Assembly: GCA_963666055.2 (NCBI GenBank)
Contig: CAXWPH010000005.1
Span: 32,001 to 96,000 of the forward strand
Source: Acidobacteriota bacterium
Lineage (GTDB): Bacteria; Acidobacteriota; UBA890; WLXD01
Direction of reading: 5' to 3'
DNA: 64,000 nucleotides
Made by a program: the position numbers and the translations under genes. The notes beneath the pieces were generated by a model. The model did not search any database. It was not told the DNA's origin and saw nothing but the letters and a program-made list of their open reading frames with translations. Each line of letters opens with the position of its first letter. Position 1 is the first letter of the stretch. Below are positions 4,306 to 33,685 of this stretch, piece after piece.

Positions 4306-6336
4306 CTACGGTGCGCCGTCGAGACTGCGGTAGATCATCTCGATCCAGCCGTCGGCGGACATGTAGCCATAGCCCCAGCTCTCGTACTCGCGACCGAGTC
4401 CGGCGGCGACGATCTGGTCGAGGCTGCGGCCCGCCGTCTTCCCGGCCCGCACCAGGTTGATGGTGTCGTCGAGCATCTTGCGCACGCGGTACAGCTCCGG
4501 CTTGTCGGCTAGCGGTCCGTGCCCGGGGATGACCGCGGCGTCGTCGGGAATCATCGGCAGCAGGGCATCGAGGTTGGCCAGCATCGCCAGCGCGTTGCCG
4601 CCCGATTGCAGGTCGGCGGTCGGGAAGCTCGATGTGCCGGAGTTGAACAAGTCTCCCATGTGCACGACGTTCGATTCGGTGAAGAACACGACGATGTCGT
4701 TGTCGGTGTGGCCGCCGGGGATCGCCAGTGCTCGCACTTCCTCGCCGTTGAAGTGCACCGAGAGGGTCTCGTTGAAGGTGATCGTCGGCCAGTGGGCGCT
4801 GTCCTTGGCAAGCAGGCGTTCGCGGGCCCGCTCGTGGGCGACCACCAGCGCGTCGCTGCCGCGTGTCAGGTTGGCGTTGCCATCGCTGTGATCGTCGTGA
4901 TGGTGGGTGTTGATGATGAAACGCAACGCGCCGCCGTCGAGCGCGCTCAGGGCGTCGGTGATGGCCTCGGTCAGCTCGGCCCATTGATCGTCGACGATGA
5001 GGATGCCATCGGGCCCCACGGAGACGGCGATGTTGCCGGCGACATCGCCGGTGGCCTCGAGCATGTAGATGTTGCCGGTGACCGGGTGGGTGACGATCTC
5101 CACACCAGTGAGATCTGGCTTCTGCGTCGACATCGCCGGGACTTCGGCGGCGCGCAACCCGTCGATTGCGATACGGAAACCCATATGGTCGTCGCTCGAA
5201 TTTTGCTCGTCGCCGGTGCGTGCCGCGGCGCGGATGCTGTGGCCCCCCTGCGGGGCAACCCATCCGTCGGTGTCGACCCCGGCCCAATCGACCCAGGAGC
5301 CGCCGCGGTTGACGCGGTCGATTTGCTCGTCGGGGACTGCGGGCGGTCGCTCTGGCCCGCTGGGGTTTCGACTCGGGGAGCGTGCGTAGTATCCCCTGTC
5401 GTAGATGTCGTAGACCCATTCGCCGAGGTTGCCGGCCATATCGTAGATACCGTATGGCGATTGGTCTGGACCGTAGGCGTCGACCGGCGAGGTCTCGACA
5501 TAACCGTCGTCGATCTCGGCGTCGGGGCGCCGCGTGTGCGGCCCGTATTTGCCGATGAAGTTGACGTCGGCGTAGTTGGCCCGGCGGCCGTCAGGGGCCT
5601 CGTTACCCCAGGGAAAGCGCAGGCCCGCGGCGCCGCGCGCCGCCTTCTCCCATTGAGCCTCGGTCGGCAAGACGACGAGGAGGCCGAGTTGGTCCGAAAG
5701 CCAGGCGCAGAATACCTGCGCGTCGTTCCAGCTGACGCTACCCACCGCATGGTTGTCGGCTTGCTCGAAGTAGATGTTGTTCCAGCCGCCGTCCAGCCGT
5801 GGCTCCCAGGGATCACGACGTTCGCCGGGCCCCGGAATCTCGCCCGTCCATTGCCACGAGCCCTGGCCCCGTTCGGCGTCGGTCACGTACTCGGTGGCCT
5901 CGACGAAGGCGCGAAACTGCCCCACGGTGACCGGGAACTTGGCGATCCAGTAGTCGTCGAGCTCGACCGTATGAACCGGGCGCTCGCCTTCGAGCCCCTC
6001 GTCCGACCCCATGGGAAAGGGCCCGGAGGGCACCAGCACGAAGCGATGGCCGTTGCCGAGATCGACCTCTCGTTGCCCGGCGGCGTTCGTGCTCGTCCGT
6101 GTGGCAGCGGCAAGCACCTGGTCGACGATCGACTGGCCGTTGGTTGAGGAAACCGGGTCGTTCGTAGCGGAGTCTACCGAGCCGACTTGTTCGGACGAGG
6201 GCGTGTAGCTCAGCGCCGGCAGCGCGGCCACGACAGTCGCTAGAATCATCGCCGCGCCGAACCGCCGTAACCCTTCGGGCGACAGGGGGTTGCGCGCGTA
6301 TGCTGCGTCGTTCCTCGTCAACGATGGGGTACCCAT
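4306..6336 (-). CDS. SUMF1/FGE-sulfatase-like domain fused to MBL-fold hydrolase, secreted
   Basis: LPTEAQWEKAARG, YDMAGNLGEWV, RGGSW and MGFR (FGE-sulfatase fold), then INTHHHDDHSDGN, GGHTDND, HMGD and IPGHG (MBL). ATG 6336 follows GAGGAGGAGGCG inside MITE copy 2. Confidence 0.85.
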   Translation of the reverse strand: MGTPSLTRNDAAYARNPLSPEGLRRFGAAMILATVVAALPALSYTPSSEQVGSVDSATNDPVSSTNGQSIVDQVLAAATRTSTNAAGQREVDLGNGHRFVLVPSGPFPMGSDEGLEGERPVHTVELDDYWIAKFPVTVGQFRAFVEATEYVTDAERGQGSWQWTGEIPGPGERRDPWEPRLDGGWNNIYFEQADNHAVGSVSWNDAQVFCAWLSDQLGLLVVLPTEAQWEKAARGAAGLRFPWGNEAPDGRRANYADVNFIGKYGPHTRRPDAEIDDGYVETSPVDAYGPDQSPYGIYDMAGNLGEWVYDIYDRGYYARSPSRNPSGPERPPAVPDEQIDRVNRGGSWVDWAGVDTDGWVAPQGGHSIRAAARTGDEQNSSDDHMGFRIAIDGLRAAEVPAMSTQKPDLTGVEIVTHPVTGNIYMLEATGDVAGNIAVSVGPDGILIVDDQWAELTEAITDALSALDGGALRFIINTHHHDDHSDGNANLTRGSDALVVAHERARERLLAKDSAHWPTITFNETLSVHFNGEEVRALAIPGGHTDNDIVVFFTESNVVHMGDLFNSGTSSFPTADLQSGGNALAMLANLDALLPMIPDDAAVIPGHGPLADKPELYRVRKMLDDTINLVRAGKTAGRSLDQIVAAGLGREYESWGYGYMSADGWIEMIYRSLDGAP

Positions 6337-6414
6337 CGCCTCCTCCTCTCTTCTTGCCTCCACTTCGCAAGACCCTGTCGCCAGATCCACCACACTTTCA
6401 CCACGGCCTGCTAG
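6263..6414. mobile_element. MITE copy 2 (right half only)
   Basis: Near-identical to 434-585 including the TIR and CTAG; the left half is replaced by coding sequence. Confidence 0.85.
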
Positions 6415-6548
6415 CCCCGTTTGCCCAACGGTGTGGGTGCCCACCCGCAACCAGGCTACCTATTGGCGCCGCCGGGCTCAACGCGTTTGGAACGTCGGCC
6501 TGCAGTCTGCACTTCGGCCTCGATATCCCGGTGCTCGCGTGGTCGTGC

Positions 6549-7031: not shown

Positions 7032-7576
7032 GACGATCCTCTCTTGGCTTCCCAGCGGTCCACGTTATCTATATGTCCGGGGCAATAGTGCTCCGGTCGG
7101 GCACGACCGGTGGCCAGCGACCATAGATGGGAAATCGCCCGCATCTCGCATCCCGGGGTGCCGATCGCGGCAGACAGAAGAAATGAAAAGCCCAGCCAGC
7201 CAAGTGTCAGCACTTGCCATCCGGCCACCGACCAGCCGAGCGCCGGCGACCAGAGCGCACCGGTCAGGAACCAGCTCACGGCCACGCCGGCGGCGATCCA
7301 CAGGCCGACGGCATAGCGTGGCCAGGCGCGCCAGCTCACACCCAGGCCGATATTCACCACGTAGGGCGTGACGACGAGCAACAGCACCGTGGTAGCCCAC
7401 CAGGTCCAGGCCGACGGCATCTGGTAGCCCGTGTGGTACCGCGTCGTCGTCGCAATCGACCAGGCGCCGTACGCGCAGACCACTCCCCAACCGAATCGAA
7501 CCAGTCGGCCGACCGGGCCAGGAGGCGCCAGGCTTCCCTGGCTTCGGAATTGGGTGTCGAGCTTGGATTCGCTCAC
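7028..7576 (-). CDS. Membrane protein with GxPGCE...C motif, paralog-like to 6549-7031
   Basis: TM segments; GTPGCEMRAISHL...HYCPGHID; stop overlaps the next ATG (ATGA coupling). Confidence 0.7.
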   Translation of the reverse strand: MSESKLDTQFRSQGSLAPPGPVGRLVRFGWGVVCAYGAWSIATTTRYHTGYQMPSAWTWWATTVLLLVVTPYVVNIGLGVSWRAWPRYAVGLWIAAGVAVSWFLTGALWSPALGWSVAGWQVLTLGWLGFSFLLSAAIGTPGCEMRAISHLWSLATGRARPEHYCPGHIDNVDRWEAKRGSS

Positions 7577-7618
7577 GCGGGCAGCCTCCCTCGGGGAGAA
7601 TGGGAATGATTCAAGACA

Positions 7619-7660
7619 TATGTACTACGATCATAGTAATTAATCAACTACGGTCGTAGT
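7619..7660 (-). promoter_or_regulatory. Putative sigma70 promoter overlapped by two palindromic operators
   Basis: ACTACGATCATAGT (7624-7637) and ACTACGGTCGTAGT (7647-7660) in an AT-rich patch; minus strand TTGATT-17 nt-TACATA. Confidence 0.6.
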
Positions 7661-7725
7661 AGTTTTGTTCACCGGCCAACGACAGATCCCCATCGGTCAC
7701 GCTGCCTGAGCCGAGGGGGCCGCCC

Positions 7726-8238
7726 CTACTCTCCCGCGAAGTCCGCGTCCGGCACGATCTTGCCGATCATCTCGCGTGCTGTGAGGCGCAGCTCCTCTGG
7801 AGTCGGTCGCCCGACGAAGTACCAGCCGTTGAACAACCGGTGAATGGTCAGGTCTGGGAGTAGTGCGAAGGTGAAGGGGACCGGTAGTGGACCATGTCGG
7901 GAATCAGTTGTCTCGCGGATGCCGAGCTCGTCGGTAAGCCGTCGTTCCGCGTCGCTCAGGAAGGGGAAGCGTGCTCCGAGCTCAGCTTTGAGGGAGGCTT
8001 GCACCTCGGGCGGGTCGACCGAGACCACTGCCAACCGGCAGTAAGCTACTGTGGCGGCGTCTTGGAACTGGACCAGTTCCGACAGCTGAAGCTGGCACTT
8101 CGGTCACCAAGGGCCACGGTAGAAGGCGAGAAACAGCGGTTGACGTTCAGCGACCTCGGCGATCGACATCACGTTGCCGCGGTCATCCGTGAGGCTGAGG
8201 TCGGGGAACTTCTGGCCGACTTCGTACTTGAGTGGCAT
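7726..8238 (-). CDS. Peroxiredoxin-like (AhpC/TSA redoxin) selenoprotein, UxxC
   Basis: ATG 8238 with GGGAG upstream; MPLKYEVGQKFPDLSLTDDRG...FYRGPW-TGA(8106-8104)-PKCQ, continuing in frame into the 7726-8034 ORF. Confidence 0.85.
8064..8103 (-). other. Candidate bacterial SECIS element
   Basis: Hairpin GGAACTG-GTC-CAGTTCC (8080-8064) with a G-containing loop about 30 nt after the in-frame TGA. Confidence 0.6.
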
Positions 8239-8268
8239 CGATGACTCCCGCTGGCGGTCCAGGCTGTG

Positions 8269-9507
8269 CTACGTCGACATTCCTCGTGCCGCGATGCGCC
8301 AGACGGCTTCGACGCGATCGCCACGAATGGCGTACATCTGATCGTAGAGGTTCACCACCGGGTCACAGTGCGACACGATCAACTCCAGCTTGTCGCCGAC
8401 GCTGTAGGTACGTGAGGGGTCATCGTAGCGGAGCACGCCGAACTCGTCGGATCCGCAGCGATACTCCATGCCGGACTCGCCCTTGACGATCGGCCATGGC
8501 TGATTGATGGTGCATGCCTTGGCCCCCGCGTCGGTGGTGACCTGACCTTCGTACTGGTCGTTGAGCACCGTCGCGAGAACGGTCAGCGAGGGCTGGAAGT
8601 CTGAGTACACCTGCGGGTCGTGAGCCCCGCCGATTGCCAGGTACTGCGCGTCCATGAAGACGTAGCTGCCCACCTGCACGTCGGTCAAGCCGGAGGTCTC
8701 GTGGTCGATGTTGTACGTACCGGTGCCGCCGCCGCTGAAGATCTCGGTGCTCAGACCGGAGCGCTGCAACATCATGAAAGTATCGGCGGCCGCAGCGAGA
8801 CGCTCGAGGGTCTGCTCCCGGCGCGCCTCGAAGCCGTGCTTGTGTTGTGAGCCACCGTCGTAGCACAGCATGCCGCGCGGCCGCAGCCCGGGCAGGGTGT
8901 CGACCAGCTGCGCCAGCTCGAGAGCGGGCTGTCCTGCGCTAATGCCGGTGCGATGTGTTCCCGGGTCGACGTCGACCACCACGTCGGCAGTGATGCTGGC
9001 CGCCTGCGCCGCATCCGAGAGGTGACGGGCATTCTCGGGTGTGTCCGTGGCCTGGACGAACTCCGAGCACAGCTTCCTCAGGCTCATCGCCCGGGCGATC
9101 TTGAACGGCGTCACATTGGTGGTCGTCATCAGGATCTGCTCGATCCCGTGCTCGAACATGACCTCGGCCTCACTCACCTTGGCGGTGCAGATGCCAACCG
9201 ACCCGCCCTCGAGCTGCAGCCGGGCGATTGCCGGGCACTTGTGCGTCTTGGCATGAGGGCGGCTGGCGATACCGTTGCGCGAGACTGTCTGCTGACACGT
9301 GGCCAGGTTGGCCTCGAGCGCATCGAGGTCGACGCAGAGTGCCGGCGTGTCGAGCTCCCACTTGGATACGTCGGCCTGCATCGCACCCTCTGAGGCCATC
9401 GAGCGCATCTCGGCGGCGGTACGCCCCTTCACTGACGTTGGAATCCACACGCCTGCCGCCCCGGCGGTCTGCAAGAAGCGGCGGCGGGATAGCGGCATGT
9501 TGGTCAC
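8269..9507 (-). CDS. DSD1/D-threonine aldolase-like PLP-dependent enzyme with Tat signal
   Basis: LDTPAL, RPHAKTHKC, SGGGTGT, QVGSYVFMD and HCDPVVN motifs; N-terminal SRRRFL. Confidence 0.9.
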   Translation of the reverse strand: MTNMPLSRRRFLQTAGAAGVWIPTSVKGRTAAEMRSMASEGAMQADVSKWELDTPALCVDLDALEANLATCQQTVSRNGIASRPHAKTHKCPAIARLQLEGGSVGICTAKVSEAEVMFEHGIEQILMTTTNVTPFKIARAMSLRKLCSEFVQATDTPENARHLSDAAQAASITADVVVDVDPGTHRTGISAGQPALELAQLVDTLPGLRPRGMLCYDGGSQHKHGFEARREQTLERLAAAADTFMMLQRSGLSTEIFSGGGTGTYNIDHETSGLTDVQVGSYVFMDAQYLAIGGAHDPQVYSDFQPSLTVLATVLNDQYEGQVTTDAGAKACTINQPWPIVKGESGMEYRCGSDEFGVLRYDDPSRTYSVGDKLELIVSHCDPVVNLYDQMYAIRGDRVEAVWRIAARGMST

Positions 9508-12917: not shown

Positions 12918-12992
12918 GCCTGGTTACCCCATTCGCTACGCCAAATTATCAGGAATTGAGGGCATGCTATCGTGCAGGGCCGACACGCCGAC

Positions 12993-13270
12993 CTAGCAGG
13001 CCGTGGTGAAAGTGTGGTGGGTCTGGCGACAGGGTCTTGCGAGGTGGAGGCAAGGAGAGAGGAGGAGGCGATGGATACCCCATCGTTGACGAGGAACGAC
13101 GCAGCATACGCGCGCAACCCCTGTCGCCCGAAGGGTTACGGCGATTTGGGGCCATCTGCAGCGTTGGCCTTCCTCGACGATGGCTAGGGCATCGCCTGTG
13201 TCAGGCCGCCTTGCATCTGGCCCCAACTCGCCGTAACCAGACCCACCACACTTTCACCACGGCCTGCTAG
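12993..13270. mobile_element. MITE copy 3 (complete, inverted relative to copy 1)
   Basis: Perfect 34-bp TIRs including CTAG; the interior is the reverse complement of 307-585 with scattered substitutions. Confidence 0.9.
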
Positions 13271-13285
13271 CGGCGCGGAGGATCC

Positions 13286-33607: not shown

Positions 33608-33685
33608 TGGCGCGCCCGGCAGGATTCGAGCCTGCGCCCGCTTGCATTAGAAGCCCGCTGCTCTATCCAGCTGAGCTACGGGCGC
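33608..33685 (-). pseudogene. Degenerate tRNA-Arg(TCT)
   Basis: GCGCCCGTAGCTCAGCTGGATAGAGC...CTTCTAA...CCTGCCGGGCGCGCCA; acceptor and D arms intact, anticodon stem unpaired, T loop CTCGAAT. Confidence 0.75.

Follow-up and report, generated by a model that had tools for sequence, protein, structure and literature searches.

The window examined here, a stretch of 64,000 nucleotides from an Acidobacteriota genome, contains a gene in which an in-frame TGA at codon 45 is very probably decoded as selenocysteine, as judged from comparison with homologous loci. The whole explanation, in which an intact gene of 170 codons would encode a predicted thiol-disulfide oxidoreductase with Sec45 in a U-P-K-C site, is held with high confidence. 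For the main reaction of the protein, disulfide exchange is slightly favored.

The gene and its surroundings

The selenoprotein gene, at 8238-7726 of the window, is read from the minus strand and runs from ATG to TAG through 170 codons, its translation containing a single internal stop, in the context FYRGPW-U-PKC. The original prediction had described this frame and the position of its TGA correctly, with the strand missing; the plus-strand reading of 7726-8238 was rejected, as its frame bears no relation to this one and is broken by two TAG codons. The same prediction stated that the ORF track reports the 3' part of the gene only, and this was confirmed. The features of the locus are as follows.

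7726..8238, minus strand: coding sequence of 170 aa with TGA as Sec, predicted AhpC/TSA (PF00578) thioredoxin-fold protein (translation, Pfam and structural model)
8104..8106, minus strand: in-frame TGA, codon 45, putative selenocysteine and first position of UxxC (homologous loci)
8095..8097, minus strand: Cys48 (TGC), second motif position, TGA in most relatives (homologous loci)
8064..8080, minus strand: SECIS-like hairpin, 7-bp stem, GTC loop (sequence, conservation and the model constraints of PMC13188914)
7876..7878, minus strand: Pro121, invariant, in the alignment column that holds the catalytic Arg in true peroxiredoxins, putative thioredoxin-type cis-Pro
8245..8249, minus strand: putative Shine-Dalgarno-like GGGAG, 6 nt upstream of ATG (sequence only)
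7726..8034, minus strand: 102-aa 3' fragment produced by standard ORF calling, active site not included

A contig of 1,982 nt from sequencing run X3 covers positions 7400-8371 with 0 differing letters, and contigs of runs X1 and X4 span the gene with 6 differing letters each. No variant at 8104-8106 is among those listed for the contigs of the three runs, which may include the source sample; an assembly error at codon 45 is therefore unlikely. The contigs of X1, X3 and X4 all have TGA, not the TGC or TGT that the original prediction had named as a result that would refute it.

The gene for a PLP-dependent enzyme of the alanine-racemase fold, D-serine dehydratase-like (8269-9507, minus strand), stops 30 nt before the start of the selenoprotein gene. 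This upstream neighbor is common to six loci only, namely those of four same-genus genomes, one duplicate record and one further locus (L184), and no shared neighbor that might give a clue to the substrate was found in more than 10 of 160 loci. The ORFs downstream of the gene match no Pfam family above cut-off. Between positions 6400 and 10600 there is no sigma-70-like promoter, and a single terminator-like site was found, at chance level. No Rfam family was detected at the selenoprotein locus, the sole Rfam match of the window being one tRNA elsewhere.

Several other features of the window were recorded. A tRNA gene at 33608-33685 (minus strand) was called as Pyl(CTA) by ARAGORN; its first 39 nt match the tRNA-Arg(TCT) of the genome on contig C15 with one change, while it diverges in the anticodon stem (3' arm) and in some of the 3' half, and the call likely represents, from this sequence match, a degenerate tRNA-Arg copy rather than a pyrrolysine tRNA. 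An element of ~280 bp with long terminal inverted repeats, MITE-like in appearance, occurs at 307-590 and 12990-13274 and partially at 6254-6418, and has 108 matches in the genome, 78 of them of at least 250 nt. A 714-aa ORF (4306-6450, minus strand) combines sulfatase-modifying-factor-like and metallo-beta-lactamase-fold domains; since its first codons overlap the partial copy of the repeat, its true start is likely further in.

Selenocysteine machinery of the genome

The original prediction had named selA, selB, selC and selD as the genes to look for, and all four are present. Profile search of the genome gave matches for selA (533.6 bits), selB (367.5 bits) and selD (326.6 bits), all above the curated cut-offs, and tRNA-Sec(TCA), the product of selC, was called twice by ARAGORN. 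Both calls fall within an 8-kb duplicate (G000 C6:1-8030 and C13:58156-66188), 99.9% identical and located at two contig ends; it is likely an assembly overlap, so that the two copies likely represent one locus.

These data also bear on the proposal that a variant code or leaky readthrough inserts Trp, Gly or Cys at the TGA, or that the assembly is wrong here and the codon is TGC or TGT. The presence of Cys in the codon-45 column of homologs would agree with such a proposal, but the long selA, selB and selD matches (305-622 codons) are free of in-frame TGA, so that TGA is not a general sense codon in this genome; the only TCA-anticodon tRNAs among its 60 tRNAs are the Sec calls, and the contigs of three runs carry no listed variant at the codon. 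We regard it as highly improbable, and decoding of the codon as selenocysteine is retained.

The genome is rich in selenoprotein genes. A genome-wide scan for redox motif plus hairpin yielded 2,288 candidates, most of them spurious, and the survey was therefore based on family searches. Eight of its 17 PF00578 matches, including the gene described here, contain one in-frame TGA, each at the redox motif. The other seven (G000 C15:816092, C15:747740, C6:385813, C15:548067, C15:964675, C12:215962 and C14:571245) each have a hairpin downstream of the redox-motif TGA. Among the molybdopterin-family matches, one of seven has an in-frame TGA (G000 C3:78655). SelD itself (G000 C2:114268-115182, locus L011) is the cysteine form (CAGC) and closes an open frame of 758 codons, the N-terminal part of which is FAD-oxidoreductase-like; this arrangement resembles the Ndh-SelD fusions described in the accessible text of PMC2398784.

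TGA and cysteine forms of the family

The full-length 170-aa protein is absent from the protein collection searched. Among the 120 listed of 586 database homologs, 109 are fragments beginning after residue 48, and the remaining 11 are full-length and read CPKE without exception. JGI labels fragments "peroxiredoxin". As the database proteins are mostly fragments and the full protein is missing, the survey was moved to DNA. It comprised 164 loci: four from this genus and the top-ranking 80 each from GTDB (of 84) and metagenomes (of 236). The site is covered by 162 of them, with duplicates among the rows, and the distinct contexts amount to 99 of the TGA form and 40 of the Cys form.

All 114 site-covering loci of at least 55% identity have TGA at codon 45, with UxxU in 95 and UxxC in 19; codon 48 is TGA in 95 of them, TGC in 11 and TGT in eight. 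The other 48 site-covering loci, all below 55% identity, have TGC or TGT at codon 45 and a CxxD motif. According to the GTDB records, the TGA form is carried by Acidobacteriota, Actinomycetota, Myxococcota, Latescibacterota, Binatia, SAR324 and Spirochaetales, and the four genomes within this genus are divided between two UxxC and two UxxU. A profile search, examined for 150 of 7,150 representatives, gave 57 CxxE, 48 CxxD, one CxxC, eight others and 36 without a motif match. The alignment of homologs suggested by the original prediction thus places Sec or Cys in the column of codon 45. Its description of AhpC/TSA-like proteins as having CxxC at this position stood in part: Cys homologs do occur at the Sec column, but the Cys-only sisters are mostly CxxE or CxxD and the TGA-form relatives mostly UxxU.

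The TGA form is associated with selB, which exceeds its cut-off in 41 of 42 TGA-form genomes versus 14 of 35 Cys-form genomes; the count omits one locus with the site uncovered (L088) and two second copies (L114 and L121), and the single miss is a 1.8-Mb assembly. No p-value is given for this co-occurrence, because related genomes are not independent, and the presence of selB in 14 of 35 Cys-form genomes indicates that the Sec machinery does not force the Sec form.

The TGA might alternatively be a true stop, the gene being a nonsense pseudogene or the 102-aa 3' fragment its sole product. In favor of this, ORF callers recover the 3' part only, as do 109 of the 120 database entries listed, and a broken copy exists elsewhere in the family: one distinct context (L138/L139, two metagenome contigs, UxxU) has TAA at codon 54, inside the SECIS stem, and is likely, from its sequence, a dead copy, so dead copies do occur in the subfamily. 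Against a true stop, all 114 loci, which come from several phyla, have TGA and never TAA or TAG at this codon, the 5' part of the gene stays in frame in four orthologs with synonymous changes, the TGA form accompanies selB, and the fragment, according to the structural model, would be devoid of the active site and of the first core strand (E35-39). We consider this alternative extremely unlikely. The original prediction of a Sec-containing thiol oxidoreductase is supported by the Sec machinery, the contigs, the homolog column and the fit of the SECIS model, the protein remaining a predicted one.

In the Cys sister group, the redoxin is fused to a C-terminal cold-shock domain (PF00313) in five of eight long representatives (P0139, P0143, P0146, P0149 and P0150), of which P0139 and P0143 are CPRD forms. 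A link of this sister group to nucleic-acid binding is possible, to judge from the domain.

The SECIS-like hairpin

The hairpin GGAACTG-GTC-CAGTTCC occupies positions 8080-8064, its stem starting at +24 and its loop lying at +31 to +33 after the TGA; the perfect GGAACTG/CAGTTCC stem with a G-containing loop about 30 nt downstream, noted in the original prediction, was therefore borne out. The bSECIS model, as given in the accessible text of PMC13188914, has a loop of 3-9 nt, a stem of 4-16 bp, G in loop position 1 or 2, a spacing of 16-37 nt and an energy of at most -7.5 kcal/mol. With its GTC loop, 7-bp stem, loop at +31 and -10.9 kcal/mol (+18..+46), the hairpin fits these published constraints, in keeping with the earlier view that a bacterial SECIS lies just 3' of this UGA.

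Taken alone, the hairpin is evidence of modest weight, because 1,251 of the 135,899 TGA triplets genome-wide (0.9%) are followed, at the distance set by the model, by a G-loop hairpin with a perfect stem of 7 bp, and the folding energy of the 81-nt region is no better than that of shuffles (z -0.51). Its weight, seen across the homologous sequences, is in its conservation. Of the 99 distinct TGA-form contexts, 98 retain all five core pairs and 89 have the hairpin in their predicted fold; for the 40 Cys-form contexts these counts are two and 0. Six pairs are kept in all 18 distinct UxxC contexts. The loop GT is found in 99 of 99 TGA-form contexts and also in 37 of 40 Cys-form contexts, as GT belongs to a Val codon. 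Paired cells amount to 99.8%, falling to 22-52% after sliding the partners, a control biased by the derivation of the hairpin structure from the same sequences.

Two-sided swaps were observed at three pairs: C-G to T-A (12), A-T to G-C (9) and G-C to A-T (25). The A-T to G-C swap comes at the cost of a Phe58-to-Leu replacement, which occurs only together with the matching Glu codon GAG (9/9). On the tree, each pair shows 2-6 changes of the 3' partner, with 1-2 independent pairs on starred branches; the independent paired events are too few for a sign test or a tree-aware covariation result. The conservation of the hairpin is partly protein-driven, since the stem overlaps the conserved codons E-L-V-Q-F.

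Protein fold, active site and proposed mechanism

The PF00578 match (68.7 bits versus a cut-off of 26) extends over residues 7-125 and spans the TGA, as does a match to PF08534, while no NCBIfam model reached its cut-off for the 170-aa protein. The structure predicted from a 111-sequence alignment, with Sec as Cys, has a pLDDT of 94.7. In this model residue 45 immediately precedes helix 46-64, and the fold begins at residue 4 with no leader, which suggests a cytoplasmic location. The best structural match is Bcp4 (3hjp; Z 23.4, rmsd 1.8, 156 residues aligned), and the nearest solved folds in general are those of BCP/PrxQ, AhpE and other peroxiredoxins, at 10-20% identity.

When the peroxiredoxin of the genome itself (L207) is aligned with the protein, its Pro pairs with R41, its Thr with U45, its peroxidatic Cys with C48 and its catalytic Arg with P121. 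The protein thus appears from its sequence to keep the scaffold of a peroxiredoxin but not its set of catalytic residues. Pro121 is invariant in 111 of 111 aligned sequences and presumably occupies the site of the thioredoxin cis-proline. Among the aligned members, position 48 varies between U, C, E and D, but position 45 is always U or C, and residue 45 is therefore the probable nucleophile and essential residue.

The following mechanism may be proposed, its decoding step from the established bacterial pathway. SelB with Sec-tRNA would bind the hairpin (8080-8064) at its GU loop and deliver Sec to the UGA, and failed decoding would stop translation, leaving a stub of 44 residues. Sec45, just before the N-terminus of helix 46-64, would attack a substrate disulfide as a selenolate; Cys48 would resolve the adduct, forming an internal Se-S bond, which the cellular thiol system would then re-reduce. 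Historically, a UxxU subfamily would have given rise to this lineage by exchange of the second Sec for Cys, with the hairpin left in place. Recoding at such sites in E. coli is 30-40% efficient according to the accessible text of PMC4513850, so that a truncated product would be expected alongside the full-length protein.

A different main function, hydroperoxide reduction through Sec45 in the manner of a glutathione peroxidase, would leave the gene a selenoprotein gene and is tentatively considered, though with less confidence than disulfide exchange. The closest solved folds being those of BCP/PrxQ, AhpE and other peroxiredoxins is in its favor, as are the peroxiredoxin-like GR...E.LR stretch, which is retained, and the JGI label of the fragments. 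Furthermore, the Cys sisters are one-thiol proteins, with CxxE or CxxD in 105 of the 150 representatives listed and CxxC in one, and the nearest Cys homologs are without a second cysteine; judged by these motifs, a one-thiol mechanism would fit them better than classical two-thiol exchange. However, R41, U45 and P121 stand in place of the peroxiredoxin Pro, Thr and Arg, the thiol-peroxidase NCBIfam models are all far under cut-off (28.4 versus 140), and a fold in common proves no function. Disulfide exchange is thus kept as the slightly favored reaction.

Hairpin register and the probable history of the second selenocysteine

The position of the hairpin was compared with that of 28 other single-Sec Prx-like loci, 24 of which matched the search pattern. 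The loop centre is at +22 or +23 in 21 of these 24, whereas 96 of 99 contexts of this subfamily have it at +32 counted from codon 45, equivalent to +23 from codon 48. In the copy described here the loop lies +22 to +24 from codon 48, which is TGC (Cys), and the hairpin is 9 nt further from its UGA than in 21 of the 24 other genes; the longer spacing could lower decoding. For comparison, in the E. coli element, according to the accessible text of PMC8659212, 11 nt separate the upper stem from the UGA, and the loop contains G23/U24.

A quick IQ-TREE phylogeny of 115 rows (104 distinct TGA-form sequences and a CxxD outgroup of 11), with positions 45 and 48 removed, placed UxxC nested inside UxxU, with eight changes between UxxU and UxxC, three of them forced by starred branches; 40 of the 112 inner branches of this tree are not resolved. 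A single UxxC clade was rejected (p-AU 3.2e-6), and the sister group of this copy within the genus is UxxU. We infer from the tree that UxxU is ancestral and that the second Sec changed to Cys several times, some reversals being possible. It is fairly probable, taking register and tree together, that a widespread, unannotated two-Sec (UxxU) redoxin lineage exists in which one hairpin at codon-48 distance serves the first UGA as well, across a further 9 nt, and that step-downs to UxxC occurred several times independently, one of them giving rise to this copy with its hairpin left stranded.

The same-genus UxxU and UxxC orthologs are 75-76% identical and have an identical 17-nt hairpin. If this history is true, the pair would constitute a natural test of one SECIS serving two codons, of the stretch in spacing and of diselenide versus Se-S, and would test the benefit of a diselenide on a peroxiredoxin scaffold with thioredoxin-type chemistry. 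The literature searched, which included few subscription papers, contained nothing on this subfamily or on a shifted hairpin register, and held no answer for a Prx-like subfamily as to two-codon decoding by one bacterial SECIS or the benefit of a second Sec.

Comparison with known systems

The accessible text of PMC9312934 and PMC13188914 describes a "Prx-like thiol:disulfide oxidoreductase" group (PF00578, UxxC/UxxU, one or two Sec, representative WP_010940744.1) as predicted selenoproteins, and that of PMC2398784 describes Prx-like 1 (pfam00578, UxxC, 225 sequences) and, within Prx-like 2, cases of UxxU. On sequence features, the present gene is assigned to this catalogued class: it shares with it a PF00578 score over cut-off, a UxxC/UxxU motif, here UPKC with Cys homologs at the Sec column, a downstream bacterial SECIS and the Sec machinery in the genome, the placement being by these criteria. 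It differs in forming a distinct subfamily of 170 aa with a GWY.xGRP motif, in which UxxU prevails, the Cys sisters are CxxE/CxxD and the loop centre is at +32 instead of +22/+23. The other Prx-like selenoproteins of the genome are ~30% identical to this protein.

BCP/PrxQ and AhpE peroxiredoxins (3hjp, 5epf, 1xxu) are the closest solved folds, with C48 aligned to their peroxidatic cysteine, but they are 17-20% identical, and their PxxxTxxC motif and catalytic Arg are missing here. A true peroxiredoxin identity was rejected: the fold is present, R41, U45 and P121 replace the catalytic triad of the PxxxT/SxxC motif and Arg, and the PRK09437 score is 28.4 bits versus 140. Sec-containing Prx are TxxU, not UxxC. 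The SelL-related redox proteins (NF040769) have in common a thioredoxin-like fold, the UxxU of most relatives and a weak match to 107 of 111 members, but this copy has a single Sec; this identity was rejected at 37.1 bits versus a cut-off of 120, the best member having an E-value of 2e-12. SelL itself has a UxxU diselenide. A ResA/TlpA identity was likewise rejected (19.1 bits versus a ResA cut-off of 170; ResA structures rank from 27th in Foldseek).

The closest full-length homologs are the Cys sisters, the CPKE, CPKD and CPRD redoxins (CPKE 54-58% identity, CPRD-type 36-45%), with which R41, G42, P46, P121, G138, GRP, R151 and R155 are held in common. They differ in having Cys at 45 and an acid at 48, and some in carrying a C-terminal cold-shock domain; the CxxD loci examined are without the hairpin.

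As far as sequence can place it, the gene is an additional member of a class already catalogued, and it is thus no surprise to the specialist; the supplementary sequence sets of PMC9312934, PMC13188914 and PMC2398784 may already include this subfamily. What is added here, from the comparison of homologs, is the likely repeated origin of UxxC from UxxU and the keeping of the hairpin at codon-48 distance. The value is also practical, as public protein sets carry this branch as fragments (109 of 120 hits listed) and both PMC9312934 and PMC13188914 treat the Prx-like class as no more than predicted. The UxxU/UxxC pair of one genus, with the same hairpin, represents a clean system for two-codon decoding and the benefit of a second Sec.
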